Counted from the first letter of the stretch, positions 254 through 19,069 are shown. The stretch is DNA of 24,400 bases from an uncultured Lentisphaerales bacterium (GCA_964451945.1 CAYVKQ010000004.1:1-24400); one strand, 5' to 3'. The notes: a model not told the origin generated them from the letters alone. Numbers and translations are program-made.

Positions 254-2278
254 ATGAACCGTACAGCATGGACCGGGCCCTGCGGCGAGGGATGGGAGGC
301 GATCGGCGCGTACAGTGCGCGGATCGAGGCGCCGTTCCGCACGCCCGAGACGCGTCAGGCGCTGGCGACGCTGGCGGCGGCCCGCGACTCCGCCTTCGCC
401 TCGTGCGGACGCCTCCGCCTGTTCAAGGTGGAAGGTCCGCACGGCGGGCGACCGCCCCTCTTGCTGGTGCAGCCGTTCGCCGCGGCGCGGCTGCAGGGAG
501 CATCCGCGCCGGCACCGCTGCGGGCGGTCGAGGCGGCGGCGCGGCTGCTCGGCCGCGCCGTCGGTGTGTCGCCGCCGGTCGCCTGCCTGCTCCACCCCGC
601 CGGAACGGGGCGCTGGGAGGGAATGGCTGTTTTCCAGGGCCATGCGGGACTGTTGCCGCTGCACGACTGGCTAGCCCGCCTGCTGGCGGAACAGAACGAC
701 TTCGGCGTGGTGCGGGCGTGGGCGCGCGCCGCCGGCGCGGCAATCAAGGACCTGCACGCGGCGGGCGTCTCCCACGGCAATCTCGACGGATGGAGCATCT
801 GGGCCGACACCCGCCGCGAGCCGGAGGAAGGAATCCGCTTTGCGGAGCTGGAACGGTGTGTCATTGGCGCTGCGCCCGCCCGCTGGCGGCGCCTGCGCGA
901 CTGGGCGGCGTTCGAGCTGCCGCCCCGGCTGCTGGACGAGGCGCTCGATGCAGGGATCGGAGCGGATGCGCCGTGGCTGCGCGCCTGGCGCGCCGCGCGC
1001 CGCCTGGAACGGCGGTTCCGCCCGCAGCGCAGCCCGCCGCCGTTGGACACGGTCCCGGCCTTTCTTTGGGACGCTGATCGCGACGTCGCCGTGGATCTGC
1101 AACGCGGTTTCGCCGCGGCGCGTCCGGCGGCGCGGACACCCCGCCCCCTGCGCCGCCGGTTGCGGAACGATGGCCGGCTGTTTGCCGCTTGCGAGCCGCT
1201 GGCGCACCGCCTGGCGGTGGGAGTGCGCGCGATCCCGGAGACCCTGACGCACGATGTGGGCATTCTAGGCGAACGGGGGATCCGCGACGTCTGGGTCCGT
1301 CTCTGCTGCCACGACACCGACGAGCGGCGCGCCCACGCGCTGGCCGCTATCCAGCATCTGGCGAAAGCGGGGTTCGGCGTCTCGGTGCTGCTGGTGCAGG
1401 ACCGGCGCGCGGTGGCGGAGCCTGAACGCTGGCCGCAGTTCATCAACCGCGCGCTCGGTCCGGTCGGATGGCAGGTACGCCGAGCGGTGTACGGCTATGC
1501 GCCCGACGAGGCGGCCTGGGGCATCCGTTCCCCTGCCGAGTACCGCCGGTTTCTGCAACCGTTGGCGGAGATGCGCGGCGCCTTTCCGGGAATCGAGTTT
1601 GCCGGCCCCGCCTGCGCGTGCGACAACCCGCGGTTTGTGGCGCGCAACGCCGAAGCCGTGGCCCGCGCCGGCGGTTGGGAGACGTGGGCCTGCCGGATGA
1701 CGGGCGAAGGATTCGGGGATGAACGGCTCTCCGACGGCGCCTGGCTGGCGCATCTGGTCCGTTTCTGCGACCGGACGCGCGCGTGTTCCGAATCGACGGG
1801 ACGGCCGGTGCTGGTGGTCGAGGCTGCGGAACGCACCGCGGATCCCGCTGAAGGAAAGGCCGGAGCCGCCATTGCGCTGCGGGTCCGGCGCAGCCTGCTG
1901 GCGGTCTGCTCCGGCTTGGTCGAGCAGGTTGTCCTCAGCCAGCCGGCGGGTGCCGACGATTGCCTGCACGCTTCTGCGCGCCAGTCGGTCTGGTCACTTT
2001 TCATGCGCCGTCTGGGAGTCAGCGGCCGCTTCGTGGAACGGGTGGAGACGGAAGGCGGCGACGACGCCTGGCTCCTCCGGTTCGAGGATGGCGACGGCGT
2101 GCCGGTCTGGCTCGGCTGGTGTGACGAAGAGACGCGCATCGTGACGGCGGGCATCGCCGTCGAACGGGCGTACGACCTGTTCGGCCGGGACGCGCCGCTG
2201 CTGCCGTCGCCACGGGTCAGGCTCACCCCCATGCCGGTCTATTTCGACGGGGCTGCGGCCGCGCCGCCGGAGCAGTGA
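254..2278 (+). CDS. Degenerate Kdo/InaA lipopolysaccharide-kinase-like domain fused to a C-terminal glycoside-hydrolase-like (TIM-barrel) domain
   Basis: The frame is open from 2. Start 254 was chosen from the upstream promoter motif (203 is an alternative). The N-half shows the kinase-like pattern GAAIKDLHAAGVSHGNLDGWSI...IRFAELE. The C-half (VWVRLCCHD, VSVLLVQDR, FAGPA, VLVVE, PVWLGW...PMPVYF) resembles clan GH-A barrels with a beta-sandwich tail. The product is assigned by motif recognition only. Confidence 0.55.
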   Translation: MNRTAWTGPCGEGWEAIGAYSARIEAPFRTPETRQALATLAAARDSAFASCGRLRLFKVEGPHGGRPPLLLVQPFAAARLQGASAPAPLRAVEAAARLLGRAVGVSPPVACLLHPAGTGRWEGMAVFQGHAGLLPLHDWLARLLAEQNDFGVVRAWARAAGAAIKDLHAAGVSHGNLDGWSIWADTRREPEEGIRFAELERCVIGAAPARWRRLRDWAAFELPPRLLDEALDAGIGADAPWLRAWRAARRLERRFRPQRSPPPLDTVPAFLWDADRDVAVDLQRGFAAARPAARTPRPLRRRLRNDGRLFAACEPLAHRLAVGVRAIPETLTHDVGILGERGIRDVWVRLCCHDTDERRAHALAAIQHLAKAGFGVSVLLVQDRRAVAEPERWPQFINRALGPVGWQVRRAVYGYAPDEAAWGIRSPAEYRRFLQPLAEMRGAFPGIEFAGPACACDNPRFVARNAEAVARAGGWETWACRMTGEGFGDERLSDGAWLAHLVRFCDRTRACSESTGRPVLVVEAAERTADPAEGKAGAAIALRVRRSLLAVCSGLVEQVVLSQPAGADDCLHASARQSVWSLFMRRLGVSGRFVERVETEGGDDAWLLRFEDGDGVPVWLGWCDEETRIVTAGIAVERAYDLFGRDAPLLPSPRVRLTPMPVYFDGAAAAPPEQ

Positions 2279-2295
2279 ACGCGTCGCATACTGAA

Positions 2296-3693
2296 ATGAA
2301 CGAGCACGGATATTCAGACACGGTGGCTGCGGTGGCGACGGCGGCGGGACCGGCAGGGGTGGCGGTCGTGCGGATCTCGGGGCCGCGGGCGCTGGCGGTC
2401 GCCGACCGCATCGTCCGCTGCACCGGAACACCCCCTTCGCAGCGGCCGGCCGGAACCTTCTTCCATGCGCAATTCGCCGATCCGCGTTCGGGCGAAGTGG
2501 TCGACGACGGGCTGGTGCTGGTTTTCCGCGCACCCCGCAGCTACACCGGCGAGGACACGGTGGAACTGCAGGGCCACGGCGGCGGGATCGCCCCGCGCCA
2601 GGTGCTGCAGGCGGCGTTTCATGCCGGTGCCGCACCGGCGGGGCCGGGCGAGTTCACCAAGCGGGCTTTTTTGAGCGGCCGGATCGACCTGACGCAGGCC
2701 GAAGCGGTGCTCGACCTGATTCAGGCGCAAACCGAGCGGGCGGCGCACGCCGCGCGGGAGCAGGCGGCGGGGGGACTCGGGCGACGGACAGAGGCACTCT
2801 ACGGGCGGCTGACCGCCATCTGCGCCGACATCGAGGCGATGCTCGACTTCGAGGAGGGAGAGTTGCCGGAGCGTTTTCTGGAGGAACGCCGCAGCGCGCT
2901 CACCGCCGTCGCCGCCGACATGGAAGCGCTGATGGCGACCTGGAACGAGGGCCGCCTGCTGCGCGGCGGGCTGTTGACCGTCATCGCGGGGCGCGTCAAC
3001 GCGGGCAAATCGTCGCTCCTGAACGCCCTGTTGGGATGTCAGCGGGCGATCGTGTCGGCGGTTCCGGGAACGACCCGCGACACGATCGAGGAGGGCTACA
3101 GCCTCGACGGCATCCCCCTGCGCCTGACCGATACGGCGGGGATGCGTGAAACCCCGGGGGAAGTGGAGCAAGAGGGGATCGCCCGCGCCCGGAAGGCGTT
3201 GGAGGCTGCGGACGTGGTCCTGTACGTGATCGACGGCAGCGTCCCCCCCGAGGCTGTGGACCGCGGGACGCTGACCACGCTGCCGGCGCAACGGACGATC
3301 CTCGTGGTCAACAAGTCCGACCGTCCCGGTTATCTCGGTGTCGCGCGCATGGCCGAAGCCTTGCAGGCTCCGGCGGCGCTGGTCGCCGTCTCCTGCTGCG
3401 CCCGTGACGAGGGCGGCGTGGACGGGGTGGTGCGCGCGCTTGCGGCAAAGATCGCGGCGGCGGCGGGTCCGCAGCACGACGGAGTCGCGGTCGGCCAGCG
3501 CCATCTGGCCGAACTGAGGCACGCGCAGGCCTCCCTTCGGGATGGGGCGGCGCTGCTGCGGGACAGCGAGTCGCTGGTGCTGGCTGCCGCTCCGCTGCGG
3601 TTGGCGGCGGAGGCGCTGGGACGCATCACGGGACGTGTCTACAGCTTCGACCTGCTCGACACGGTCTTTTCGCGCTTCTGCGTCGGTAAGTGA
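2296..3693 (+). CDS. mnmE: tRNA modification GTPase MnmE (TrmE)
   Basis: DTVAAVATAAG N-terminus, GEFTKRAFLSGRIDLTQAE, G1 GRVNAGKSS, G2 GTTRD, G3 DTAG, G4 NKSD, and C-terminal FSRFCVGK. An alternative GTG start at 2275 overlaps the upstream stop. Confidence 0.98.
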   Translation: MNEHGYSDTVAAVATAAGPAGVAVVRISGPRALAVADRIVRCTGTPPSQRPAGTFFHAQFADPRSGEVVDDGLVLVFRAPRSYTGEDTVELQGHGGGIAPRQVLQAAFHAGAAPAGPGEFTKRAFLSGRIDLTQAEAVLDLIQAQTERAAHAAREQAAGGLGRRTEALYGRLTAICADIEAMLDFEEGELPERFLEERRSALTAVAADMEALMATWNEGRLLRGGLLTVIAGRVNAGKSSLLNALLGCQRAIVSAVPGTTRDTIEEGYSLDGIPLRLTDTAGMRETPGEVEQEGIARARKALEAADVVLYVIDGSVPPEAVDRGTLTTLPAQRTILVVNKSDRPGYLGVARMAEALQAPAALVAVSCCARDEGGVDGVVRALAAKIAAAAGPQHDGVAVGQRHLAELRHAQASLRDGAALLRDSESLVLAAAPLRLAAEALGRITGRVYSFDLLDTVFSRFCVGK

Positions 3694-3905
3694 TTGTAAA
3701 TGAGCATCTAGACGCATTTTCAGGCTTGTTCATAAGCCGTCAATAACCGGTAAACAGCGCGACGGCGCAACCGGCGCAACAACAACGGCAGACAAATTAT
3801 CGGCATTTGTAACCAATTGCCTTACAATGATTTACACACTACAAGCCGCTTCTTTATATCGATACATAAGGCGCGAGTCACGTTGTGAACACGCCGTGCC
3901 GGAGT

Positions 3906-3914
3906 TGTGCATAA
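3906..3914 (-). promoter_or_regulatory. DnaA box (TTATGCACA)
   Basis: tgtgcataa on + is TTATGCACA on -, a perfect match to TTWTNCACA. A one-mismatch box (ATTTACACA) lies at 3830-3838 within an AT-richer stretch. Confidence 0.5.
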
Positions 3915-3950
3915 CCCGTCCCGCCCTTCCACTGCTTGCAGGCAAAAGGA

Positions 3951-4241
3951 GTTAGGCGTTAGGCATTGCGTTAGGCGCTGGCAGACGGCGTTGGGCGTTG
4001 AACGTTGAACGTTCGGCGGCGGGCGTTCGCGCCCGATCTCCGCTCTCGCCGCCCGACGTCCTAAAAGAAGCAGTTCTCGATCCGTGATCAGGCGCGGTTG
4101 CGCGGTTGCGCCGCAGGAAACGGTTGGGTAACAAGACACGAGGACAACATCGAGACCTCAACGTTACCGCTCAACGACGAACGCTTGACGCCTACCATCT
4201 AGCTACCCAGCCCAGCGTCTAGCCCCTAAAGCGCCTAACGC
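3951..4241. repeat. Degenerate long inverted repeat built from heptamer units (GTTAGGC/GTTGAAC)
   Basis: The left arm 3951-4013 has gttaggc x3, gttgggc and gttgaac x2. The right arm 4158-4241 has complementary units. gcgttaggcgct (3968-3979) pairs perfectly with agcgcctaacgc (4230-4241), and aacgttga (4001-4008) with tcaacgtt (4158-4165). Confidence 0.6.
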
Positions 4242-4288
4242 CGGATCACGAACGGCCAGCAATTCTCATTATGACGCGGTTGGGCCCT

Positions 4289-4366
4289 CGGTATCGGGGT
4301 CGGTATCGGTATCGGGGTCGAAAAGCCTGTGTTTGGTCGATGCCGATACCGACCCAGACACCGATA
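4289..4366. repeat. REP-like imperfect palindrome of hexamer units (CGGTAT/CGGGGT x5 ... ATACCG-type x4)
   Basis: cggtat cggggt cggtat cggtat cggggt cga (4289-4321), then a 15-nt loop, then tcg atgccg ataccg acccag acaccg ata (4337-4366). Confidence 0.8.
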
Positions 4367-4426
4367 GGTACACCTCCACAATTAGTGCCTTACAAACCAA
4401 CAACAGCAATAAAGAACAAGTTCTTG

Positions 4427-4501
4427 CACCACGAAGGCACGAAGAGCACGAAGTTTTTTAATGACTCGCTCCTTCTTCGTGTCCTTCGTGACTTCGTGGT
4501 G
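4427..4501. repeat. REP-like palindrome (CACGAAG x3 / CTTCGTG x3)
   Basis: caccacgaaggcacgaagagcacgaag (4427-4453) is the reverse complement of 4475-4501 with 3 differences in 27 bp; the loop is 21 nt. Confidence 0.88.
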
Positions 4502-4591
4502 AGAATTTCGGGTTGCGGGCGCGGCCCGCGTTAGAATTGCTGCACGGACGGCGCTGGACGAAAACACCCGCAGCACGTTACCATACCGGCA

Positions 4592-6691
4592 ATGACGAAT
4601 CCTTCTGACAAGAATACTTCCGGATGGGACGTGATCGTCGTCGGCGCCGGCCATGCCGGTTGCGAAGCGGCGTTGGCGGCGGCCCGTCTCGGCTGCCGCA
4701 CCCTGCTGATCACCGCGACCCCCGGCGCCGTCGCCCGCATGCCCTGCAACCCCTCCATCGGCGGCCTGGCGAAATCGCACCTCGTTTACGAGATCGACGC
4801 CCTGGGCGGCGAGACCGGCTTCGCCGCGGACTGCGCCGGACTCCAATTCCGCACCTTGAACGCCAGCCGCGGCCCCGCCGTACGCGCCACCCGCGTCCAA
4901 TGCGACAAGCTCGGCTACGCGGCACGGCTGCGGGCGGTCGTCTTGGCCACACCTAATCTCGAACTTGTCGAGGGCGAGGAAGTTACCGGGATCTCCCTTG
5001 CGGGAACGTCTCCGGAACGGGTGCTCGGGGTGCGCACAAAACGGAGCGGCGACCTCGCGGCCCGTTGTGTGGTCGTGACCGCCGGCACGGCGCTGGGCGG
5101 GACAATCCACATCGGAAAAGAGGTGGTGCCGGGCGGTGGCGACGGTCGGGCGGCGGCTCACGCCCTCTCGCAGAGCCTGCGCGAGGCGGGGTTCGATCTC
5201 ATGCGCCTGAAGACCGGCACCCCGCCGCGGCTCGATCCCGCCTCCATCGATTACGAGCGCACACAAATCCAGCGGGGCGACGAGCCGCCGCCGCTCTTTT
5301 CCTGGCGCGGAAAGCGCTTGTTTGCCAAACACCACTCCTCCGGGGCCGGGGGCGACGTGGCGGTTGGCGACCAGGAGCAAGGGCAAGGCGTGGCACCCGG
5401 GGTGGTAGCAGGAGCCACCGGCATCATGTTCCACGTGGAACATCGGGGTCAGGCGGCACACTGTCTTGCGGATGGATCGCCCCCTGTCGCGTCCGCGCCG
5501 AGCTCACGCGCGGATCCACCCCCTATGTCGGAGTGTTCCACGTGGAACATTCCGCCGCCGAGCACGGTTGGGACAGTATTGGGCGGCGCCGCGCAGGTTC
5601 CGTGCTGGCTGACACACACGACGCCAGCCTGTCACCGCGTCATCCGCGACAATCTGGCGAACAGCTCCCTGTACGGGGGCGGCATCACGGGCACCGGGGT
5701 CCGGTATTGTCCATCGATCGAGGATAAGATCGTCAAATTCGGCGAAAAGGACCAGCATCACGTCTTTCTGGAGCCAGAGGGACGGGGCCCGAACGCCCTG
5801 ATCTATCCCAACGGCCTCTCGAACAGCCTTCCACGCAGTGTCCAGGAGGAGATGGTGCGGCTGGTTCCCGGTCTGGAACGGGCCCGCTTTCTGGCCTATG
5901 CCTACGCCATCGAGTATGACTGCATCGACGCCCGCGAGCTGAACCACACGCTGGCGAGCAAGCGGATCGAGGGCCTCTATCTCGCGGGGCAGGTCAACGG
6001 CACGACCGGCTATGAGGAGGCGGCGGCTCAGGGTTTCGTCGCCGGCGTGAACGCCGCCTTGCGTATCCGCGGCGAGGAACCGCTGCTTTTGAGCCGTCAA
6101 GAGTCCTATATCGGTGTCTTGATCGATGACTTGGTGACAAAGGGAACCGACGAGCCCTACCGCATGTTCACTTCGCGTGCCGAGCGGCGTCTCTTGCTGC
6201 GCCAGGACAATGCCCGCTTCCGGATGCTGGCGCACGCACGGCGGCTGAATCTCGCCCCTGCCGCTTTTCTGGAGGAAAGCGAGCGCCTGGTTCATGTGAT
6301 CGGGCGCGAGCGCGAGCGGCTCGCTGCGGTTCGCCTGCCCGACGGCACGCCCCTGGCGCGTCATCTGGCGCGCCCGGAGGTCCGCTACCGCGATGTCGCC
6401 GACGATTTGCACCCCTTGTCACCCGAGGCGGCGGAGCAGGTCGAACTGGAGATCAAATACCAAGGGTACATTGAGCAGGAGCGGCGCCAGGCGGAGCGGG
6501 CGGCGCAGATGGAGGGAGAGGGCATCCCGGCGTGGCTGGACTATTGGATGATTCCGTCCCTCCGCTATGAATGCCGCGAAAAACTCGCCCGGGTCCGACC
6601 GGTCAACATCGGGCAAGCGGGGCGCGTCCCGGGAGTCACACCCGCCGACCTCGCGGTGTTGGCGGTGGTCATCAAGCGCGGCCGCTGTTGA
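4592..6691 (+). CDS. mnmG: tRNA uridine-5-carboxymethylaminomethyl(34) synthesis enzyme MnmG (GidA), with an internal ~85-aa insertion
   Basis: [18 protein letters not shown] motif, [55 protein letters not shown] and IKYQGYI are all hallmark MnmG motifs. Confidence 0.98.
5427..5442. other. parS centromere-like site (inside mnmG)
   Basis: TGTTCCACGTGGAACA is a perfect palindrome matching the canonical parS consensus TGTTNCACGTGAAACA; it extends to an 18-bp palindrome at 5426-5443. Confidence 0.88.
5534..5549. other. parS centromere-like site (inside mnmG)
   Basis: A second identical TGTTCCACGTGGAACA, 107 bp downstream of the first and in a different reading frame. Confidence 0.88.
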
Positions 6692-7041: not shown

Positions 7042-8757
7042 ATGTGGCGGTTTTCCCGTCGCGGCGTTTGCCGGGCAGGGTGTTTGATCGGCCTTCTTCT
7101 TGTGTTTCCGGCGGTGGCGCAGCGGTACGACGAGGTGGTGATCACGGCCGCAGACTACAAAAACCTCGACACGTTCGAGACGGCGGCGCTGGCCAAGGCC
7201 GACAAGGTTTTCGCGGCCAAGGACTACCGGGCCGCCACGGCCGAATACGACCTCTTCCTGGTCGAGAACGGCCGCTCCTCGGCGGCCGCCTACGCCTTGC
7301 TGCGCAAAGGGCGGAGCCAGATGCTCGACAACAAGCGCTACGAGGCGGTGCGGACGTTCAAGGAGGTGATCGACTATTTTCCCGACGCCGTGCTGTACGC
7401 CGCCGCCGCGCTCTACTACCAGGGCCAGTGCCACTTCGAGAATGGCGAGCAGGCCAATGCGGTGAAGGTGTGGCAGAAGATGGTCGCCGATGCCGAATAC
7501 GCCAAGCACGCTCTTGCCGCGCCGGCGCTGCTGGCGCTGGCGAACGAGCTGGCGCGGCAGCAGAAGACCGCGGAGGCGGCTTCCTACTACGAGCAAGCGG
7601 CGGTCGAGTTCCGCACCAAGAACCCCGACGTGGCGCGCCAGGCGATCGGCAAGGCCTGCGAGATCCACATCCGGCTGCTGCCCAGCGAGAAGAAGATGAA
7701 GGATTTCTACCTGCGCGCCCGGACGACGCGCCACCATCCCGACAACGCGCCCGACGAAAACAAATACTGGGCCGACGTCCGCGCGATGATCCACCGCTTT
7801 GCCGCCGGGTTCGCCGCCGAGGAGAAGTCGCGGCGGGCCGCCTATTTCAAATACTGGGCCGACGCGATGGAGGGGAAGCGGCTCACCGACAACGCCTTCC
7901 GCATCGACTGGGCCTACTTCCGCCTGCAGCACGAGGACGATGCCGACGCCTGGGTCGGGCGGCTCGACAAACAGTTCGCCGACACCTTCAAACCGGGGGA
8001 CTACGCCCAGGTGGTGCAGTTCATCCAGGCCTTCGGCAAGCAGAAGGAGAAAGTCGGACAGTACTACGCCAAGCTCGACTTCGCCAAGATGGAGAACGCG
8101 CTGATCGACCGCCTGGTCCGCGCCCTGGTCGAATCCAACGAAGAGATGGCGATGGCGCGCAACGCCTGCGACAAGATCAACCACGAGCGGTGGAACGACG
8201 ACGACCGCAACCGTTTCATCGACTGGGTGCAGTACCGCGACCGCGAGATGGTCGAGATGGTCTGCCGGCGGATGAAGGATCCCGACTATGGCAAGTACCG
8301 CCTGCTGCGCTATTACCATTGGCAGCGGATCGCCGACAAGGGGCTGCCCCTCGCCGACGAGGTCGCGACCGTGCCCAAGTACGCGGGGGAAGCCTACTAC
8401 ATGAAGGGCGAGCTACTGGAGCACAGCCAACGCTGGGCCGACGCCATCCAGGCCTACAAAGCCTCCAACCGCGAGCCCGACAGCCTGTTCCGCATCGCCG
8501 AGTGCATGCGCCGCCTGAAGCAGACGACGCAGGCGATCGCGCAGCTGCGCGAGATCGAGAATTTCTTTGAGCCTCAGGCGCCCGAGGCGGCGCTGCGCAT
8601 CGCGTGGATCTACCGCGACGGCAAAGAGGAGAAGCAGTTCATCGCCGCCTTGCGCGGCATTCTGAAGAAATACCCGCGCAGCGGGCAATCGAGTACGGCG
8701 CACTTGGAGTTGGAGCGCCTGGGTGTCAAAATGGGTGGAGGAGTCGATGCAGACTAA
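7042..8757 (+). CDS. Secreted tetratricopeptide-repeat protein (BamD/CpoB-like TPRs)
   Basis: The ORF opens at 6871. ATG 7042 follows AGGG and gives a signal peptide (MWRFSRRGVCRAGCLIGLLLVFPAVA-Q). N- and C-terminal TPR pairs are visible (AAYALLRKGRSQ...YFPDAVLYAAAALYYQGQCH; EAYYMKGE...DSLFRIAEC...KYPRSGQS). Confidence 0.85.
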   Translation: MWRFSRRGVCRAGCLIGLLLVFPAVAQRYDEVVITAADYKNLDTFETAALAKADKVFAAKDYRAATAEYDLFLVENGRSSAAAYALLRKGRSQMLDNKRYEAVRTFKEVIDYFPDAVLYAAAALYYQGQCHFENGEQANAVKVWQKMVADAEYAKHALAAPALLALANELARQQKTAEAASYYEQAAVEFRTKNPDVARQAIGKACEIHIRLLPSEKKMKDFYLRARTTRHHPDNAPDENKYWADVRAMIHRFAAGFAAEEKSRRAAYFKYWADAMEGKRLTDNAFRIDWAYFRLQHEDDADAWVGRLDKQFADTFKPGDYAQVVQFIQAFGKQKEKVGQYYAKLDFAKMENALIDRLVRALVESNEEMAMARNACDKINHERWNDDDRNRFIDWVQYRDREMVEMVCRRMKDPDYGKYRLLRYYHWQRIADKGLPLADEVATVPKYAGEAYYMKGELLEHSQRWADAIQAYKASNREPDSLFRIAECMRRLKQTTQAIAQLREIENFFEPQAPEAALRIAWIYRDGKEEKQFIAALRGILKKYPRSGQSSTAHLELERLGVKMGGGVDAD

Positions 8758-10957
8758 ACAGAGCATGCGGGTTTGGGGGCGCCTTCTCACGGCAGCGGTG
8801 TGCGTCGCCGCAAGCGTGGCCGCGGCCCAGGGGGACGCCAAGGGACGGGCGACGGCTTCGGCGGCGGGCGACCTGGAGGCGCGCCGGCTGCTGGACCGCG
8901 CGCAGGAGCTGCTGCAATCGGGCGAGCGCGAGCGCGGCGTCAAGATGATCGAGACGGTCCTGGAGCAGTACCCATCGAGCCGCATGATCTACCCCGCCTG
9001 CCTGGCGCTGGGCAAGCACTTCATCGAGGCGAACCAGCAGGTTCTGGCCATCAGCCACCTCAACCGCCTCAAGGTGCTCGAACCGGCCGACGGTCTGGCG
9101 CAGGGCGGGGACCGCGAGCTGTTCCTGGAGGCGATGTACCTCATCGGTGTCGCCTACTTCCAGACGCGGCAGTACAACATGGCCTTCCCCGTGCTCCGCC
9201 ACATCACCTCCAAATATCCCAATTCGGTCTGGGCCAACCAGGCCCACTACTACATCGGGATGTGCCATTTCTCCCAGCAGAACTGGAACAAGGCGATCGA
9301 GGCCCTCAGCCTGGTGGGGACGTTTGTCGACCCCGACAGCCCGACCACCGCCTATGCCGAGGCGGGGCGGCGCTTCTACGTCAAGGTCGAAGACCCCGAT
9401 TTCCCGGTGCTGCTGGCGCTCGGCAAGAAGGTCATGGTGACGCTGACGACCGGCCGCGGCGACAAGGAGGAGATCGAGTGCATCCCTCTCACGGCCGACG
9501 CGACGGTGGTCATCGGCTCGATTCCCACGGCGATCGGCGCGGCCAGGCCCGGCGACCGCATCCTCCAGGTGATCGGCGGCGAGGAGGTGACCACGTCCTA
9601 TGTCGACGAGAGCACCGAGGCGGGCGAGACAAACGTAGGCCGCGCCTCCAAGGTGCGGGTGGTCTCGACCGGCCTGCTCGACTTCATGCTGGGCGATTTC
9701 GACGCCCGCGCGGCGGCGGCCTTCCTCGGCCAGCCGCTCTTCATCCAGTTGCTCGACGTCGATCTGGACGCCAGCGACCAGGCCGAGACGCGCAGAATGA
9801 CCGTCCTGTCGCGCTACAAGTACCGCTCCGAGGACGACGACCAGTCGGCCTTCACCGACGAAGGCGCGCTGCGCTACGAGACGCGCGACCGCGTGGAGGT
9901 CGTCCTGACCGAGCAGGGCGCGGCCCCCATCCGCAGCGGCCGCTTCACCGGCAAGGTGGCCGTCGAACTCGCCCAGGAGAACCAGCCGATCGACCAGGCC
10001 GACAGCGTGCTCGCCTGCCTCGTGGGCGACGAGATCGTGATCTCCTACACCGACGAGCTGCACATCGGCGGCGAGACGCCGCGCGTGGTCGAAGCCGCGA
10101 TTCCGGTCGTCGGCGAGGTCGACAACCGGCCGCGCGCCACCCAGGACGTCGTCTTCGATCCCGTGCTGCGGGCGCGCAAGAACCTGGTCGAGGCGACCGC
10201 CTATCTCGAATTGGCCCGCATTTTCCACAGCATGGGGCTGATGAAGGGGACAAAGGAGAAGACCGTCGAGGGCCTGTCCCGCGTCGAAGCGGTGATCCGG
10301 GCGCGCAACCAGGACGTCTCGGCCGACATCAAGCAGGAGGCGTTCAAGCTCAAATGGGAGCTGCACATCGAGGCCGAGGAGCTGAACGCGGCGCTCTCCA
10401 CCTGCAGCCTCTTCAGCCAGCTCTACCCGCAATCGCCGCTGGTCGACCAGGCGCTGATGGGGATCGGCAGCATCCGCATCGAAAGCCGCGACTACGACGA
10501 AGCCATCCGCATTTTCCGCCAGATCACCACCCTCAAGCATTCGGAGGCCAAGGCCGAGGCGCAGTTCCGCATCGCCCAGACGATCGAGCTGCAGGATGAG
10601 GCATCCACCAAGAAGGGGCAGCTGCTGAGCCGGGCGATCCAGGAGTACAAGACCTGCGCCGAGCGCTATCCCGAGAGTCCCTATGCGGGCGAATCGCTGG
10701 CCAAGCTGATCGACTACAACATTTCCAAGGGCGATTTCTCGCAGGCCAATTCCCTTTTGGAGCAGACGTTCCAGGACTACCCGGACGCCTCGTTCCTCGA
10801 CAGCATGCTGATGAAATGGGTTCTGGTCGCCTACCAGTCGGGCGATTTCGCCAAGGCCAAGGAGAAGTGCAACAAGCTGCTCTTCGAATACCCGGAAAGC
10901 CGCCACGCCGAGACCGCCCGCCAGGTTCTGCCGCGGATCGAGGCGCGCCTGCAATAA
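8747..10957 (+). CDS. Secreted TPR protein with two central beta-rich repeat modules
   Basis: Strong SD GGAGGAG (8737-8743) before ATG 8747, an 11-nt overlap with the upstream gene, a signal peptide ending VAAAQ, many YP(x)S TPR turns, and a beta-rich middle at 9365-10056. Confidence 0.88.
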   Translation: MQTKQSMRVWGRLLTAAVCVAASVAAAQGDAKGRATASAAGDLEARRLLDRAQELLQSGERERGVKMIETVLEQYPSSRMIYPACLALGKHFIEANQQVLAISHLNRLKVLEPADGLAQGGDRELFLEAMYLIGVAYFQTRQYNMAFPVLRHITSKYPNSVWANQAHYYIGMCHFSQQNWNKAIEALSLVGTFVDPDSPTTAYAEAGRRFYVKVEDPDFPVLLALGKKVMVTLTTGRGDKEEIECIPLTADATVVIGSIPTAIGAARPGDRILQVIGGEEVTTSYVDESTEAGETNVGRASKVRVVSTGLLDFMLGDFDARAAAAFLGQPLFIQLLDVDLDASDQAETRRMTVLSRYKYRSEDDDQSAFTDEGALRYETRDRVEVVLTEQGAAPIRSGRFTGKVAVELAQENQPIDQADSVLACLVGDEIVISYTDELHIGGETPRVVEAAIPVVGEVDNRPRATQDVVFDPVLRARKNLVEATAYLELARIFHSMGLMKGTKEKTVEGLSRVEAVIRARNQDVSADIKQEAFKLKWELHIEAEELNAALSTCSLFSQLYPQSPLVDQALMGIGSIRIESRDYDEAIRIFRQITTLKHSEAKAEAQFRIAQTIELQDEASTKKGQLLSRAIQEYKTCAERYPESPYAGESLAKLIDYNISKGDFSQANSLLEQTFQDYPDASFLDSMLMKWVLVAYQSGDFAKAKEKCNKLLFEYPESRHAETARQVLPRIEARLQ

Positions 10958-10990
10958 CCTCTCGATATGTCCACCCAGGAGAAACCACGC

Positions 10991-13900
10991 ATGAAACACA
11001 TCCTCCTCGCCGCCTGCATCCTCGGTTCCGTCTGGACCGCTTCCGCCCAGGCGCCCGCCGCGCCCGCCGCACCCGCCGCCGCGGAAGACCCGCGCCTGAC
11101 CGCCTTCAACGAACTGCTGACGCGGGCGCAGCGGTCCACCGACGGCCTTTCGGTCGAAGAGATGACCAGGCTGCTCAACGAGGGGCGCGACCTCGGCCGG
11201 CCGCACCCCGTTTCGGGCATCGCACGCAGCTTCCTCTCGCGCCACCCGAATCCGGCGCCGACGGTTCTGCGCCTGGCGGCGCAGAACGCCATGCTCACCG
11301 GCGACTACCGCCTGGCCGCCTCGCGCTACCGGCAGTACTTCCGCAACGTGCCGGTCTCCGCCGAATCCTCCCAGGCCGCCGCCGAGCTGTTCTGCCTGCT
11401 GACCGACTATACCAAGCAGGTCGACGACGCCTTCGCGGCCAATGCCGACTACGGAGACAAGTACCGGCAGGCGCCGCAGGCCAGGCAGTATGACAGCTGG
11501 TTCCTCGAGCGGTGCTGGGACCGCCGCGCCACCGGCGCGATGGCCAAGCGCCTCGCCTCCATCTTTGCCGAAAAGCTCCCGCTCGAGCAGGAGCGCTACG
11601 CCTACTGGCACCATCTGGACCGGCTCATCGAGCGCCTCGGTTCGGTCATCCCCGAAAACACGGACGCCATCCTGCCGGGGCGGTCCATCATCCCGCTGAT
11701 CCGCGAAGACGCCGTCCGCGCGGCCCGGCTCGGCTTCTTCATCGACAACCTCGCCTTCCACGCGGCCCGCGCCGGCAAGGAGGCGGCTGCCCTCGCGCGC
11801 GAGTTCGAGCCGGTGCTCGCCTCGGCCAAAGCCTATCTCGACCAGGCGCCGACCGAGGCATCCCTGCGCCAGATCATGGCGGCCTTCGGCGGCGGTCCCG
11901 ACCGTCCCGACGAGTCGGTGTGGAACACGATGGCCGACAAGAAGCGCGACTTCTTCTTCTCCTACGCCTTCGGCAAGCTCCCCGAAGCGGAGCAGGTCCG
12001 CTTCCTGAACTGGGATTGGTGGGCGATGCCCGCCCGCCTGGCCACCCCCGAGCAGTGGATCACCCTGGGCGGCAAGCATCCGCAGGCGTTCACCAAGGCG
12101 GCGGGGATCTACCGGCTGCCGTGGGTCACGCAGACGACCAACGCGCCGCTCTACAAGGCGCAGGCCGCGTTTCTGGCCGGCGCCACCTTCGACGCCGCCG
12201 CCGTCATCACCGCCCTTGCGGCGGCCGGCGACGTGAACGGCTCGGTGCAGCACCTGCTGACCCAGTCGGCCTGGAGCATGCCGTTCGCCGACCGCGGCCG
12301 CGGCAACGCCGAGACGTTCCCGGACCTGGTCGTCAACCAGATCATCCCGGCGCGCGCCAATCTGCGCGGGTTGAGCGGCGGGGAGCGCGACGCATTCGTC
12401 TACGATGCGCAACTGGCGTTCATGGACGGTCCGTTCTGCAGCAGCGTGGCCACGCCCTTCTCGCCCAAGTCGGTCAGTTTCCTGCTCCGCAGCGTCTGGG
12501 GCTACTGCAGTCAGGACGCCGCCCGGCGCGACCGCTACGTCGCCCTCCTCGGCAAGCTGGCGTGGGTGCCGTTCGTCGGCGAGAAACGCGAAAAAGTGTT
12601 CGAGCCGGCGCTTACCGAGTTCCGCCGCTGGGCGCAGGAGACGCGCCGCCAGTTCGACGGACTGGCCGGCAAAACCGACGAGGCGTCGGTCAAAGCGCGC
12701 AAGGACCTGGAGGCGGTCGTCGCGCAGATCGCCAAGATCGAGGAGGCGTTCAAGCAGGCGGTCGAGACCGATCCCGACCCGGCCAAGGCGCCCAACCCGC
12801 AGTGCCGCGACCTCGCGGCCGCCATCAAGGCGCAGGAAGCGGGCGACGCCGCCGCCACCGCCACCGCCGCCAAGGCGCTCTACGCGCCGATCCGCGAGTA
12901 CCAGAAGAACAAGACGCCGTTCGGCGAGGCGCTGCTCGGCTTCCTGATGACCCCGCGCGACGCCAAGCTCGCCTGCGAAGAGGCGCAGGTCGCCACGCTC
13001 GCCGACCAGATCGGGCTGCGGCTGGGCACGCCCGCCTCCGTGCGCGGCGCCCGCGAATGCGTGCGCCAGTTCTCCGCCCGCGCCGGCTGGCGGTTCGACT
13101 GGACCCTGCGCCCCAGCAAGGAGGACGACGCCCTGCGCGATCAGATCGCCGACGTGCTGGCCAAGGCGATCGAGGCCCGCACCGCCAAGGACCAGTGGGA
13201 CGGCGAGCTGTTCACCTGGTACCGCGGCGTGGTCAAACAGGAGAGCGAGCAGGCGCAGGCGCTGGTCAGCGCGCTCATCGAGCGCGACATCTTCACCAAA
13301 CAGAACGTCAGCCTGTGGCACCCCGGGCCGACCTGCAGCGCCATGGCCCTCATCCGCAACGAATTTCCGTCGCTGCGCGAGAAGTACCCGGTCGAAACCT
13401 GGTTCGACGACCGCATGGTGGACGAGATCAGGCGCACCGGCAAGGTCGACGACGCCTATTGGAACTACGGCCACGACCGTCTGAAAAAGGTGGCCAATGC
13501 CCTGGCGGAGCGCTTCACCGCCGACATTTCCTACACCTTCGTCGGCACGCCGGCGGCGCCCGCCGTCTACTCGCGCGACCAGTTCAACGCCCTCTCGTGG
13601 CGCGTGCTCAACGCCGACGCCCCGCTCGTCGGCGCCTACCTGGACAAGATCCAGGCGGCCTACGGTAAAACCCGCTTCGACCGCCCCGCCTCCGGCGCGG
13701 TCGCGATCACCCAGATGTCGGCCGACACCCCCGAGGGCCGCAAGGCCTTCTTCGACCGGGTGCGCGACTACACGGCGCGCGCCAAGGCGATGCCCTACGC
13801 CATCGGCCTGCCGACGCTGCCGCAGCTCAACAACCTGTCGATCGACGGCACCACCCCGCTCACCGACGCGGAACTCGCCGCGCTGGCCGAGTGCTTCCGC

Positions 13901-16900
13901 TACTGCCGCTGGACCGGGTGGAACGGCACCGAGGAGCGCCTGATGACCCTGATCCACAGCGGCTTCGCCGCGCGCGGCCGTTTCGGCGAGCTGCTGCCGC
14001 TGATCCCGGAAATGTGGCGCGTCGCCTACGAGCAGAACCGCCGCGAGACGATGCTGCTGCTCTCCGACTTCACCTCCAAGCTCATGGAGAGCGGCGCGGC
14101 GATTGCCGCCGCCACCTACAGCGTCACCGGTCTCGAGGTGGCGGGCGACCGGCTCCCCGAAGACATCCGCAACTCCCTGACCGCCCTGCGGACGAAGTCC
14201 CAGGCCGAAGCGGGCGGCGGCCTGCTGGTCGAGCGTTCCGACCGCCGCTACCCGATCCTCGCCGCGCAGGCGCTCTTCCACGCCGGCCGACTCGACAGCG
14301 CCTGGGAACACTACCTGCAGGCGCCGCAGCTCGCCCTCTCCGAGTACAAGGACCTCGACCTCGGCTTCACCATCTGGCTGGTCGAGCGCCGCACGACGAT
14401 GGGGCAGTTCGACCAGGCCGACGAACTGGCCCGCACGCTCATCCAGTGGATCGACGCCGCCCCGCAGGGCTTCGACCCCGAAACCCGGACGCAGATGCTG
14501 ATCGCCTACGCCGACATCGCCTTCGCCCGCCAGGAATACCCGCGCGCCCGCGCCCAGTACGAGCGCGTTGCCGTGGCGCGCGAATTCGCCGGCACCTTCG
14601 GCGCCAAGCGCGCCGAGTTGAAGATCGCCGAGGTCGACCGCCTGACGCGCCACTACGACGCCGCCTACGAACGGCTCGACAAGCTCGACCGCCAGCGCGA
14701 CACCGCCATCCAGGCCGAGGCGCGCTACCAGATGGCGCTGCTGAAATTCGACCAGGAGGACTACGCCGGCGCCCGCGACGCGATCAACCGCGTCTTCGCC
14801 ATCGCCCCCAGCCATCCGCAGGCGGGACTGCTGGAGGGCGAGCTGAACGTCCGCACCAAGAAACTGGTCGAGGCGACCGAGCTGAAGATCGGCCTCTCCG
14901 CCGACCAGCAGACGCTCATCCCCGGCCGCCCCCTGCGGGTCGGCCTCGAGGACCGCACCCTCGCCGTCGTGGGCAAGACGACCGACATCGAGATCCGCGT
15001 CTGGACCGACTCGGGCGACGAGGAGGTCTTCATGCTCCTGCCGTTCGGCGACTCCAAGACCAAGTTCCGCGGCGAAATCGCCACGGCGCTCGCCCCCACC
15101 AAGAAGGGCGACCGGCTGCTGCAGGTCCTCGGCCGCGACAAGGTCCACTACGGGTTCTCCGAGCGTTTCCGCAAGGCCGCCGGCATCGGCGCCGTCGAGA
15201 CCGTCACCGTCGAGGTCATCACCGATCCCGAGCTCTACGCCTCCTCGGGACGCATCCTTTCGCGCGAGGAGCTGGAGGAGAAGGCGCTCGAGCAAATGAT
15301 CCGCCAGCGCGAGCGGATCGAAGAGGAGCGCAACGCGCCGCTCAGCACCGTCCGCGCCGCCAACGAGGTCAAGCCCGGCAACCCCATCTACGTCCGCGTC
15401 GTCGATCCCGACCGCAGCGGAACGCCGCAGAAGGACAAGGTGGTCATCCGCGCCTCCAGCAGCAGCGGCGACGCCGTGCAACGGTTTGAAATCGAGGAGA
15501 CGGAAACCCATTCCGGCGTTTTCGAGGGGCGCCTGCCCACCGCGTCGGCCTCCGCCACCGCCTTCGCATCCGACACCGAGGAGGGGCGTCAGGCCAACTA
15601 CGTCATCGCCGCCGACCCGAACCTGCCGCCGTGGGTGGCGCTGGGGGACAAGAACCGCAACAAGCTCTTCACCGTCGACCTCAACAACAACCTCACCCTC
15701 GGCTCGCTCTCGCTGCTGGCCGACGTCACCGGCCGCGCGATCAAACGGTTCGCGGTGCAGACCTCGATGAACGGCAGCGACTACACCACTGTGGCGACAT
15801 GGCCCGCCGACATGCCGGCGTGGGACGCGGCGCTGCGCATCCGCATGGTTCGCTACGGCGGGCGCAACGCGGCGCCGGCGAACCTGAAGATGTTCAAGGA
15901 GTATTTCGCCTACGGACATGTCGTCCAGGATGCGCCGATGGTGGTCGCCGAAGGCAAAACCTCCGCCGATCTGCGCCAGACGATCCGCACCGCGGAGAAA
16001 GAGCTGCAGATGGGTCGGACCGCCTGGGTGCTGGCCCATGTACAGGGGACCTTCTACGTGCCCGAACGCCGCAAGCGGACGTTCCGCCTCGATCCCAAGA
16101 ACCGGCTGCAGAATGTGAAATACATCCTGGCCATCGACGGCGCCGAAGGCCCCTCGCCGCTCGAGCACCCCGTTTCGCTCGCCAAGGGCTACCACACGCT
16201 CGACCTCTACGCGGCCGTCCACCTGAACACGCAGGCGGCGTACGAGCTGCTGTGGGACATCGCGGAGGATCCCTACATGGCCCGCGTCCCCGAAACCGCC
16301 TTCACCGCGGCCGAGTGGGACAAGGAGACGCCCCCCGCCGGATTCACGCCCGCCAAACTGACCCCGAACGAGGCCGGCACGAAATTCGCGATCGCCTTCG
16401 CCTCCAACACCACCGCGCGCCTGGTCCGCTTCGGCATCTGTGATTTCGAATCGGACGCGCCCGCCATCCGCAAGATCGGCCTCACCGGCGCAGACGGCAA
16501 GGTCCTCCTGCCGGCGGCCGAGGATGTGCTCGCCCTGCGCAACAACCAGATCCTCGAGATCGTCCCAGGCGACCGCGTCACGATCGCCTACGAAGACCCC
16601 TCCGTGATCACCCGCGAGCGCCAGAACACCGAAACCTTCCTGAGCGCGACCTTCTACAACGCCGAGGTCGGCGCCTACTTCGTCGAAACGGTGGTCGACC
16701 CCTACGACAACGTGCGCCGTCCGCTCTTCGTGCCGATGCGGCGCTACCAGGCGGGTGAACCGGTGACCGTGTTTGTCCAGGACCCCGACGCCGACGAGAC
16801 CGAGGAGAACGACAGTGTCGTCTTCCATGTGCGGACGACCGCCGGCAAGCAGATCGAGGTGAAGGCGGTGGAAACCGACAAGCACGCCGGCATGTTCGCC

Positions 16901-19069
16901 AGCCGCATCTTCCCGGTGGCCGGCGAGCCGAAGCGGCCCACCGAAATAACGGTCGCCTCGGGCGACGACATCCAGATCGTCTACCGCGACGAGAAGAATA
17001 CCGACTACGGCATCCCGTGGGACCGCAGCTACACCCTCGAACAGGCGGCGCCCACCCCCCCCGAGCTGCGCGTCTTCACCTACGACTCGCGCCTGCTCGC
17101 CTCCAACGAACTGGCGGCTGTCGCCGCGCGGATGCCCGCCGTGGCGACGGGTGAAGTGGTGCCGATCACCCGCACCCTCAATGCCGTCCGCCCGGTGAAA
17201 CCGAAACCCGACACCCCCCCCGTGACGCTGCTCGGCGCGCCGCTGATTGTCGAACTGCGCCATCCCTCGCTGGCGATCTCGCCGCTGAGCGAGGCCGAAT
17301 TGGTCGTCCAGACCTCCGCCGCGCGCAAGCAGGCCGGCGTCGCCGAAACGGCGCCGTTCGACCCGTCGCTGCCGGGGACCATCCGCTACCGCATGGGGAT
17401 CGTCGACCTGCGGATGCCGAAGGCGCCCGAAGGCTACGAGAAGATCAGCCTCGTCGGCAACCCGTTCGCCATGGATCCGCTGGAGGACGGACGCTTCTCG
17501 TTTGTCATCCCGACGGTCCTTGGCGGCCTGGCCGATATGGACACCTCCACCGAAGTCGATGAGCGCCAGTACCGCATCGATGACGAGAACGTCCACGTGG
17601 TGCCGGTCGCCTGCCTCACCGACAAGGGCGACCCGCGCTCGATCCGCCGCTTGTACAAGCTGCCGCCGCTCCACGTCCGGCCCGACGACACGGTCCGCAT
17701 CGCGGTCAACACCGCCGGCCCCAAGGAGCCGCCGCAGTGGCAGGTCCAGGATGTCTCCTTCACCGCCGACACCATGCTCGACGTGATGGACCAGCGCTAT
17801 CAGAAGACCGTCGACGCCTTCCATGTCGGCGAGCGCCTCTACCTGCGCGTGATCGATCCCATGGCCGACAAGAGCGGCGACAAGGACAGGATCTCCCTCT
17901 CCCTCCTGGTGAACAGCGCCCCCGCGGACGCCAAGCCGGTGGAGCTGACCGAGACCTTCGAATACACCGGCGTCTTCAAGGGCAACGTCCAGCTGGTCTA
18001 CGAGGGGGTGAAGAACGAAACCCCCGCGTCCGACGCGCTCGCCGTCCCCTACGGCGCCGCCGTGTCGCTCAAGTACGCGCCGCGCGAAGGGATCGTCGTG
18101 GAGTGCCAGGTGGCCGTGCGCAAGGGCGCCGACGGCGAAGTGCTGCCCTTCACCAAACGGTTCCAGGACACCGAGATCGCCGTGCAGACGCAGTTCACCA
18201 TGGCCGAGGCCTACTTTGAAATGGCCAAGAAGCACCGGGCGCTGAAGGAGGAAGAAGTCGCCCGCCGCGGCATCGCCCAGGGGAAGAAGCTGCTCGAGGA
18301 GGCGATCCGCGACTATCCCAAGACCGACGCCCGCGTGCAGGCCGACTACCTGCTCGCCAACCTCGCCTTCGAGGAGGCGGAGCAGACGGAGAACGAGGAT
18401 CTGCGCAAGAAGCTCTTCGTCGAGGCGATCACCCGCTTCAGCGACCTGATCGCCGGCTACCCCGACAGCGAGTACGCGCCGAAGTCGCAGTTCAAGAAGG
18501 CGCTCGTCTTCGAACGGATGGGCGAAATCGACGCGGCGTGCGAGGAGTACGTCAAGCTCTCCTACCGCTACCCGGAGAACGAGCTGGTCGCCGAGACGAT
18601 CGCCCGCCTAGGTCAGTATTTCATGACCAAGGGCAAGGAGATCGAAGAGCGCCTCGGCGCCGAGACCGACCTGGTGCAGAAGGAGAAGATCCGGATGCAG
18701 GCCAACGAGTTCTACCGCACGGCCGCGCAGGTGTTCTCGCGCCTCGCCGAACGCTTCCCCGAGCACACGCTCGCCGCCAAGACCCGGGTCCTCTCCGCCG
18801 AGAACTGGCTCCGCGGCCAGGAGCTGAAGAAGGCGGTCACGGTCTACGAGGCGATCATCGCCGACAAGAAGGTTCCGCCCGAACTGGTCGCGCAGTCGAT
18901 GTATTGGTGCGGCGACAGCTTCCTCCGCATGAAGAATTTCACCGACGCCTACCGCATGCTCAAGCGGCTCACCTGGGACTATCCCGAAAGCGTGTGGGCG
19001 AAGTACGCGCGCGGCCGCCTGACCGAGCCCGAGCTGGCCCGGATCGAGGAAATGGAGATGAAGGAGTAA
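10991..19069 (+). CDS. Giant (~2,692 aa) secreted protein: helical N-half, TPRs, repeated beta-modules, F5/8 type C-like and PA14-like domains, C-terminal TPRs
   Basis: SD AGGAG at 10977-10981 before ATG 10991 (10967 is an alternative). Signal peptide MKHILLAACILGSVWTASA-Q followed by an APAAP linker. Uninterrupted 8-kb frame with strong C/G-ending codon bias. Confidence 0.9.
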   Translation: MKHILLAACILGSVWTASAQAPAAPAAPAAAEDPRLTAFNELLTRAQRSTDGLSVEEMTRLLNEGRDLGRPHPVSGIARSFLSRHPNPAPTVLRLAAQNAMLTGDYRLAASRYRQYFRNVPVSAESSQAAAELFCLLTDYTKQVDDAFAANADYGDKYRQAPQARQYDSWFLERCWDRRATGAMAKRLASIFAEKLPLEQERYAYWHHLDRLIERLGSVIPENTDAILPGRSIIPLIREDAVRAARLGFFIDNLAFHAARAGKEAAALAREFEPVLASAKAYLDQAPTEASLRQIMAAFGGGPDRPDESVWNTMADKKRDFFFSYAFGKLPEAEQVRFLNWDWWAMPARLATPEQWITLGGKHPQAFTKAAGIYRLPWVTQTTNAPLYKAQAAFLAGATFDAAAVITALAAAGDVNGSVQHLLTQSAWSMPFADRGRGNAETFPDLVVNQIIPARANLRGLSGGERDAFVYDAQLAFMDGPFCSSVATPFSPKSVSFLLRSVWGYCSQDAARRDRYVALLGKLAWVPFVGEKREKVFEPALTEFRRWAQETRRQFDGLAGKTDEASVKARKDLEAVVAQIAKIEEAFKQAVETDPDPAKAPNPQCRDLAAAIKAQEAGDAAATATAAKALYAPIREYQKNKTPFGEALLGFLMTPRDAKLACEEAQVATLADQIGLRLGTPASVRGARECVRQFSARAGWRFDWTLRPSKEDDALRDQIADVLAKAIEARTAKDQWDGELFTWYRGVVKQESEQAQALVSALIERDIFTKQNVSLWHPGPTCSAMALIRNEFPSLREKYPVETWFDDRMVDEIRRTGKVDDAYWNYGHDRLKKVANALAERFTADISYTFVGTPAAPAVYSRDQFNALSWRVLNADAPLVGAYLDKIQAAYGKTRFDRPASGAVAITQMSADTPEGRKAFFDRVRDYTARAKAMPYAIGLPTLPQLNNLSIDGTTPLTDAELAALAECFRYCRWTGWNGTEERLMTLIHSGFAARGRFGELLPLIPEMWRVAYEQNRRETMLLLSDFTSKLMESGAAIAAATYSVTGLEVAGDRLPEDIRNSLTALRTKSQAEAGGGLLVERSDRRYPILAAQALFHAGRLDSAWEHYLQAPQLALSEYKDLDLGFTIWLVERRTTMGQFDQADELARTLIQWIDAAPQGFDPETRTQMLIAYADIAFARQEYPRARAQYERVAVAREFAGTFGAKRAELKIAEVDRLTRHYDAAYERLDKLDRQRDTAIQAEARYQMALLKFDQEDYAGARDAINRVFAIAPSHPQAGLLEGELNVRTKKLVEATELKIGLSADQQTLIPGRPLRVGLEDRTLAVVGKTTDIEIRVWTDSGDEEVFMLLPFGDSKTKFRGEIATALAPTKKGDRLLQVLGRDKVHYGFSERFRKAAGIGAVETVTVEVITDPELYASSGRILSREELEEKALEQMIRQRERIEEERNAPLSTVRAANEVKPGNPIYVRVVDPDRSGTPQKDKVVIRASSSSGDAVQRFEIEETETHSGVFEGRLPTASASATAFASDTEEGRQANYVIAADPNLPPWVALGDKNRNKLFTVDLNNNLTLGSLSLLADVTGRAIKRFAVQTSMNGSDYTTVATWPADMPAWDAALRIRMVRYGGRNAAPANLKMFKEYFAYGHVVQDAPMVVAEGKTSADLRQTIRTAEKELQMGRTAWVLAHVQGTFYVPERRKRTFRLDPKNRLQNVKYILAIDGAEGPSPLEHPVSLAKGYHTLDLYAAVHLNTQAAYELLWDIAEDPYMARVPETAFTAAEWDKETPPAGFTPAKLTPNEAGTKFAIAFASNTTARLVRFGICDFESDAPAIRKIGLTGADGKVLLPAAEDVLALRNNQILEIVPGDRVTIAYEDPSVITRERQNTETFLSATFYNAEVGAYFVETVVDPYDNVRRPLFVPMRRYQAGEPVTVFVQDPDADETEENDSVVFHVRTTAGKQIEVKAVETDKHAGMFASRIFPVAGEPKRPTEITVASGDDIQIVYRDEKNTDYGIPWDRSYTLEQAAPTPPELRVFTYDSRLLASNELAAVAARMPAVATGEVVPITRTLNAVRPVKPKPDTPPVTLLGAPLIVELRHPSLAISPLSEAELVVQTSAARKQAGVAETAPFDPSLPGTIRYRMGIVDLRMPKAPEGYEKISLVGNPFAMDPLEDGRFSFVIPTVLGGLADMDTSTEVDERQYRIDDENVHVVPVACLTDKGDPRSIRRLYKLPPLHVRPDDTVRIAVNTAGPKEPPQWQVQDVSFTADTMLDVMDQRYQKTVDAFHVGERLYLRVIDPMADKSGDKDRISLSLLVNSAPADAKPVELTETFEYTGVFKGNVQLVYEGVKNETPASDALAVPYGAAVSLKYAPREGIVVECQVAVRKGADGEVLPFTKRFQDTEIAVQTQFTMAEAYFEMAKKHRALKEEEVARRGIAQGKKLLEEAIRDYPKTDARVQADYLLANLAFEEAEQTENEDLRKKLFVEAITRFSDLIAGYPDSEYAPKSQFKKALVFERMGEIDAACEEYVKLSYRYPENELVAETIARLGQYFMTKGKEIEERLGAETDLVQKEKIRMQANEFYRTAAQVFSRLAERFPEHTLAAKTRVLSAENWLRGQELKKAVTVYEAIIADKKVPPELVAQSMYWCGDSFLRMKNFTDAYRMLKRLTWDYPESVWAKYARGRLTEPELARIEEMEMKE

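Follow-up and report, generated by a model that had tools for sequence, protein, structure and literature searches.

Why does the reading frame of a universally conserved enzyme carry two copies of a palindrome that resembles a chromosomal centromere site? The question is raised by the mnmG (gidA) gene of an uncultured Lentisphaerales bacterium. The DNA analysed, called the window below, is a stretch of 24,400 nucleotides (GCA_964451945.1 CAYVKQ010000004.1:1-24400), which is contig C4 of a 3.65-Mb assembly (642 contigs, 84.7% complete). The genome belongs to the PVC group, and among named records its best MnmG matches are labelled Kiritimatiellae.

Two parS sites in the reading frame of mnmG

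It had been predicted from the window that two perfect parS palindromes lie in different frames of mnmG, inside an in-frame insertion of about 85 residues at a point where Escherichia coli MnmG has 9-10. The coordinates and the translations hold, and the count of 96 residues between the FSW and QVPC motifs is exact. The relevant features are as follows.

2275-3693, plus strand: mnmE, the partner gene upstream of mnmG, with TrmE_N, MnmE_helical, and MMR_HSR1 domains
4592-6691, plus strand: mnmG (gidA) coding sequence, 699 amino acids, an unbroken frame including the insert (Pfam, PDB match, AlphaFold2)
5306-5593, plus strand: insert between FSW (residues 236-238) and QVPC (residues 335-338), 96 codons in frame, hypervariable and predicted to be disordered
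5427-5442: parS site 1, perfect palindrome TGTTCCACGTGGAACA, read as MFHVEH (residues 279-284, frame +1)
5534-5549: parS site 2, the same 16-mer TGTTCCACGTGGAACA, read as CSTWNI (residues 315-320, frame 0)

Both sites fit the 16-bp inverted-repeat consensus tGTTNCACGTGNAACa. No further match to the 16-mer at up to three mismatches was found within the window, and shuffled sequences average 0.06 matches. The genome-wide count that the original prediction had proposed as a check gave two perfect copies in the 3.65-Mb assembly, both in the insert and 107 bp apart; because the assembly is 84.7% complete, more parS sites could be unassembled. Elsewhere in the assembly there are three two-mismatch matches, all of them non-palindromic, and about one is expected by chance (estimated from the number of 16-mers within two mismatches and the genome size). 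The sequence TGTTCCACGTGGAACA is identical to parS2 and parS3 of Pseudomonas aeruginosa, which are bound best by ParB in that species, where one perfect site suffices for segregation and nine of ten parS sites are located in coding sequences (PMC4368675). The GC content of the window is high (62-72%). Read in all six frames, the 16-mer is free of stop codons and so fits into a coding sequence in any register.

Some other features of the window were noted. The roughly 900 bp that separate mnmE from mnmG (3694-4591) have a lower GC content (0.62-0.65), one weak DnaA-box-like word, two short ORFs (3822-4139, minus strand; 4271-4534, plus strand), and no Rfam match. A 5′-open frame of 758 amino acids (2-2278), which directly precedes mnmE and overlaps the start of that gene, has a weak Kdo/WaaP-type kinase domain (4e-05). 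Two giant ORFs overlap on opposite strands in 8726-19069. The plus-strand ORF (10967-19069, 2700 amino acids) has weak TPR and YfiO matches in Pfam, and the minus-strand ORF (8726-18235, 3169 amino acids) has no Pfam match. Probably, the former is a real gene and the latter is a high-GC shadow frame.

The insert and the integrity of the enzyme

Does the insert spare the enzyme? In the MnmG frame, the GIDA family (PF01134) matches at 7.7e-139 in two separate stretches, and the C-terminal helical domains GIDA_C_1st and SAM_GIDA_C (PF21680 and PF13932) are both found. The best solved structure, Aquifex aeolicus MnmG (2ZXH, 1.8e-161), is also matched in two stretches, leaving residues 239-331 of the query uncovered. 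An AlphaFold2 model made from an alignment of 69 sequences has a mean pLDDT of 88 and a pTM of 0.88. In the same alignment, C52 (in MPCNP) and C373 (in RYCPS) are invariant columns; by motif, they are C47 and C277 of E. coli MnmG. Both E. coli residues are catalytically required, and C277, the cysteine of RYCPS, belongs to the MnmG-specific motif 1 (RYCPSIEDK), which gains order upon MnmE binding (PMC12397908). Since the fold is confident and the two cysteines are invariant, the enzyme looks intact despite the insert.

The original prediction had regarded the insert as a tolerant loop. This view is supported by the model, in which a short helix at the start of the insert (residues 238-249) is followed by residues 253-321 with a pLDDT below 50 (10-residue block means of 32-37) and without secondary structure; a conserved folded domain was not seen. 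Both parS sites are encoded within this low-pLDDT segment. Thus, the insert is predicted to be intrinsically disordered inside a confident MnmG fold, and it should not be taken as a domain in annotation. Going by the E. coli domain limits, it is part of insertion domain 2 and precedes the RYCPS motif by about 37 residues. Because the crystal-disordered region of E. coli MnmG is 255-292 (PMC12397908), the insert lies upstream of that region and not within it.

In named records, the equivalent loop has 8-10 residues in Planctomycetota, Proteobacteria, Bacteroidota, Nitrospirota, and others. With 96 residues here against about 8 in other phyla, the net insertion is about 88 residues, close to the size predicted. 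The loop lengths and the parS contents of the loops are as follows.

MAGs labelled Kiritimatiellae, Lentisphaeraceae, or Victivallales: 13-174 amino acids; parS present, 1-3 sites
Pontiella sulfatireligans F21: 40 amino acids; parS present, 2 sites
Opitutaceae: 27 amino acids; parS present, 1 site
Akkermansia and other Verrucomicrobiales-labelled records: 27 amino acids; parS absent
Chthoniobacterales: 22 amino acids; parS absent
Granulicella and Bryocella (Acidobacteria): 56-58 amino acids; parS absent
Other phyla: 8-10 amino acids; parS absent

Loops that are longer yet free of parS were seen at loci L070 and L077 (Granulicella and Bryocella) and in the range L081-L117 (Akkermansia and others). 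Since the loop has been lengthened without parS in several groups, it is a general hot spot for insertions, and the insert may be older than the parS sites.

Conservation of the DNA word in the order and the class

How far does this arrangement extend among the relatives? I compared the MnmG orthologues of 30 genomes of the same order, representing 12 families (loci L008-L037). Their inserts vary from 17 to 301 amino acids and are unalignable, and each of them contains one to three sites, although those of L018, L027, and L029 carry only a symmetric variant. Thus, as had been anticipated, parS is kept in 30 of 30 orthologues while its flanks drift beyond alignment. In the order-level mnmG loci, 53 of the 58 sites are identical. 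Even within the genus, genome G001 has an insert of 57 amino acids whose first site is read in another frame than in the window. Over the orthologues, the translation of the site is CSTWN in 33 cases, [MLV]FHVE[HQ] in 24, and VPRGT in three. At 128 invariant amino acid columns, the major allele at third codon positions averages 0.51 in frequency and is fixed in none, and outside the insert no run of invariant nucleotides exceeds 5 nt, as compared with 16 nt for parS. A 16-nt word that stays letter-perfect amid saturated third positions, and that is read in three frames, must be selected as DNA and not as peptide, just as the original prediction had argued from two frames.

These observations bear on the idea that the insert is selected as a protein, with a CSTWN/MFHVEH motif or a folded accessory domain in which the palindrome is incidental. 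The insert is indeed always in frame, and its position in insertion domain 2, a short distance upstream of the MnmG-specific motif 1, would suit a functional element of the protein. However, a single DNA word yields three unrelated peptides, the nucleotides are invariant at synonymous positions as well, and the insert has no conserved flank, no constant length, and no predicted structure. I regard selection on the protein as extremely improbable.

The flanks of the 58 sites are biased: A is found at position −2 in 35 sites and at position −1 in 34 sites, and positions +1 and +2 after the 16-mer are A/T-rich or T-rich. The bias may reflect a longer palindrome, AA-parS-TT, or a constraint on codons.

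At the genome level, the word is present in 38 of the 41 genomes of the order, with one to three copies per genome, the exception being G038 with five. The reversed word, used as a control, was found in none of the order genomes. In the remaining three genomes (G013, G019, and G030; 73-77% complete), neither the word nor mnmG was detected. Apart from those of G038, the genome-wide copies listed for the order genomes map to mnmG coordinates.

Is the trait common in the class Kiritimatiellia? I searched evenly sampled genomes for a composite pattern, namely a perfect parS followed within 200 nt by codons for Cys-x-x-Thr-His-Thr (CxxTHT). It occurs in 137 of 201 genomes, which is a lower bound as the pattern misses sites of the variant type, larger spacings, and motifs that have diverged. 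The positive genomes cover 84 of 103 genera and include 113 of 157 high-quality genomes, and a control for the composite pattern gave no match in the class sample. In the same phylum outside the class, two of 81 genomes have the pattern, both belonging to one family. It was also observed that TGTTTCACGTGAAACA-type sites lie 7-200 bp beyond the ends of mnmG at L097, L100, L109, and L116, several of which are Bacteroidota-labelled. Since parS-like sites occur just outside mnmG in Bacteroidota, the link between parS and mnmG is wider than the class.

Duplicated units surround the sites in close relatives (e.g., L009, L010, and L011). Together with the variation in copy number from one to three, they could suggest that the insert is the remnant of a selfish repeat or a mobile cassette whose parS-like palindromes are neutral for the host. 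This is again a most improbable reading: a mobile repeat would be dispersed, but the word is not scattered elsewhere in the genomes, and neutral DNA would hardly be retained perfectly over 84 genera.

In the exception, G038 (92% complete), five perfect sites are crowded into about 800 bp. The array lies at the following locus.

L138 (G038:C84), 2641-3665: parS array in a divergent intergenic spacer of about 1 kb, flanked by the genes for a GH2 mannosidase and an alpha-2-macroglobulin

Searches of G038 for the MnmG protein and for the GIDA family gave no match. Judging from these sequences, the array looks like a centromere that was relocated out of mnmG. As the sites of G038 are intergenic, mnmG would be the habitual host of the centromere and not a requirement.

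Covariation of ParB with a variant site

Four genomes have exclusively the variant site TGTGCCACGTGGCACA: G015 and G032 (genus g11 in family f10), and G020 and G026 (g15 in f6). The variant is a symmetric change at site positions 4 and 13, from T to G and from A to C, respectively. In the 201-genome class sample, no lineage with a position-4/13 variant was found beyond G020 and G026. If ParB reads these sites, its recognition helix may have changed together with them. It was found that ParB has an Asn in the helix-turn-helix (HTH) motif V-x-N-x-L-R-L-L in all 11 canonical-site genomes (His in none), including sister genera of the variant lineages (g16 in f10; g7, g19, and g21 in f6), while the ParBs of all four TGTGCCACGTGGCACA genomes (L126-L129) have a His in V-[A/T]-H-[A/S]-[L/M]-R-L-L. 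In a motif alignment, this residue is placed directly after the equivalent of Caulobacter A184, which a ParB/Noc study gives as one of the ParB specificity positions (PMC7383237). Thus, a natural co-switch of ParB-parS specificity is possible in g11 and g15. Two independent co-switches make for modest statistics, yet they would be expected if ParB reads the sites.

A further explanation has to be weighed here, namely that the palindromes act as RNA, for example as a hairpin with a 6-bp stem and a 4-nt loop that pauses ribosomes, or are targeted by a protein distinct from ParB, such as a CACGTG-binding regulator. The 16-nt palindrome can be folded as a hairpin and, within mnmG, is always transcribed. 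However, the match to the ParB site extends over 16 of 16 positions, beyond what a stem needs, and stems tolerate compensatory changes, which the near identity of the 58 sites does not reflect. Moreover, the sole variant co-occurs with a change in the recognition helix of ParB, and the G038 array is located between divergent genes. An RNA element or another binding protein is thus highly unlikely, although slightly less so than selection on the protein or a selfish repeat.

In summary, the peptide-motif, RNA-hairpin, and mobile-repeat readings were rejected on the three frames, the invariance over 16 positions, the ParB co-switch, and the lack of dispersed copies.

ParB, ParA, and the replication origin

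The original prediction would make little sense in a genome without parB, but a canonical ParB is encoded on contig C61. It has the ParB_N, HTH_ParB, and ParB_C domains of Pfam and the GERR motif. Its nearest solved relative is Myxococcus ParB (7BNK, 4e-53), and Bacillus subtilis Spo0J (6SDK) and Caulobacter ParB (6T1F) are also among its best solved relatives. The neighbour of parB is asd; neither parA nor mnmG is adjacent. A fragment of a Soj-like ParA (AAA_31, 1.4e-40) was found at the end of contig C25, which cuts the gene; in the PDB, it is most similar to ParA 8RAY and to Soj 6IUB and 1WCV (1e-26 to 1e-28).

In this MAG, dnaA, parB, and parA are each on contigs other than that of mnmG. 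Because dnaA is on another contig, the distance from the origin is measurable only in relatives: mnmG and dnaA are separated by about 10.5 kb in G004, about 26 kb in G012, and about 11.4 kb in P. sulfatireligans. In MAG analysis, the site may mark the centromere locus, which is near dnaA in these three relatives.

It was also considered whether oriC itself lies inside the window. No DnaA-box cluster was found there; the three weak matches are no more than expected by chance, and Rfam gave no match. This candidate was rejected.

Real ParB targets need not serve mainly in ParA-driven segregation. Their main role might be regulation or SMC loading; for example, ParB clamps might throttle transcription of mnmE-mnmG and tie wobble-uridine modification to the state of replication or segregation. 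The sites are inside an actively translated gene, so that RNA polymerase and ParB must meet, and parB is linked neither to parA nor to mnmG here. P. aeruginosa ParB is described as influencing gene expression too (PMC5961200). Against this, the sites of G038 are intergenic and those of Bacteroidota lie just outside mnmG; therefore, the locus appears to matter rather than mnmG expression. I consider a mainly regulatory or SMC-loading role unlikely, though it is the least unlikely of the alternatives, and it is compatible with a centromere, not exclusive of it. As a side-role of ParB, regulation of mnmE-mnmG expression is possible.

A probable centromere in a dispensable loop

Taking these results together, I conclude that the two 16-mers are probably the chromosomal parS centromere of a Kiritimatiellia-type bacterium (Verrucomicrobiota, PVC group) placed in a dispensable loop of MnmG. 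I put the probability of this reading, drawn from sequence comparisons, at about 0.85. By analogy with the ParB family, canonical CTP-type ParB dimers would nucleate on the two palindromes, spread across the mnmE-mnmG neighbourhood, and then act together with the Soj-like ParA, and probably also SMC, in segregation of the origin region. The lineage-specific disordered loop would accept almost any sequence and nearly any length, and in-frame indels and duplications apparently alter its length and the copy number of the sites. The DNA word is kept by selection, with the encoded peptide as a by-product.

A more ambitious version is that the mnmG loop is a dedicated and evolvable centromere cassette, which holds the only high-affinity parS sites of the class, adjusts their number and spacing through in-frame indels and duplications, and has a word that co-switched with the ParB helix in two lineages (T4G/A13C with Asn to His). 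I lean towards this version only slightly.

What would this mean? A whole bacterial class appears to house its chromosome centromere inside a gene, and a protein-DNA recognition site, rather than protein function, would fix codons inside a universally conserved enzyme. If true, the co-switch would be a natural specificity determinant outside those of the ParB/Noc work. The locus may offer a natural test bed for ParB clamps working alongside transcription and translation, and the Asn/His and T/G co-switch may offer one for the ParB-parS code. With Pontiella and Kiritimatiella among the cultured members, such questions are within experimental reach.

Comparison with known systems

That parS sites exist and that they occur in coding DNA is already known. 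A published account of parS in an MnmG insert was not found in the literature searched. What seems new is that all the perfect sites of the genome are in one dedicated, disordered, and hypervariable MnmG insert, that this placement is kept in the majority of the class genomes sampled, and that the sites are translated in any frame. New evidence comes from the Asn/His co-switch of ParB, from the statistics at the codon level, and from the exceptional G038.

The closest parallel is with parS2 and parS3 of P. aeruginosa (PMC4368675), which have the same palindrome TGTTCCACGTGGAACA; as here, the sites are few in number, and in P. aeruginosa they lie near the origin. However, the P. aeruginosa sites are in ordinary codons of various genes, with degenerate copies scattered, whereas here all perfect sites are in one dedicated insert of one enzyme, and this placement is kept across a class in three frames.

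The parS-ParB (Spo0J) systems of B. subtilis and Caulobacter crescentus share the consensus family tGTTNCACGTGNAACa, the GERR CTP motif, and the HTH recognition helix with the present one, and an association of parS with the mnmG/gidA region, which in the gidAB-parAB origin neighbourhood is near oriC, is also common to them. In contrast to B. subtilis and Caulobacter, parB and parA are unlinked to mnmG here, and the site is within the MnmG reading frame, not near parB or intergenic.

The specificity switching between ParB and Noc (Jalal et al. 2020, PMC7383237) also pairs a change in the HTH with a symmetric change of the palindrome. In that work, the changes were made at different positions of the site and at residues 173, 179, 184, and 201 of the protein, whereas here the switch would involve site positions 4 and 13 and the residue beside the A184 equivalent, from Asn to His.

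Finally, the MnmG of this bacterium resembles those of E. coli, A. aeolicus (2ZXH), and Chlorobaculum tepidum (3CP8) in its Pfam domains, cysteines, predicted fold, and MnmE partner, but has about 88 extra residues, predicted to be disordered, in insertion domain 2. The loop is also longer in the MnmG of Acidobacteria (56-58 amino acids) and Akkermansia (27 amino acids), but there it is free of parS, while in the present genome it carries every perfect copy of the word.
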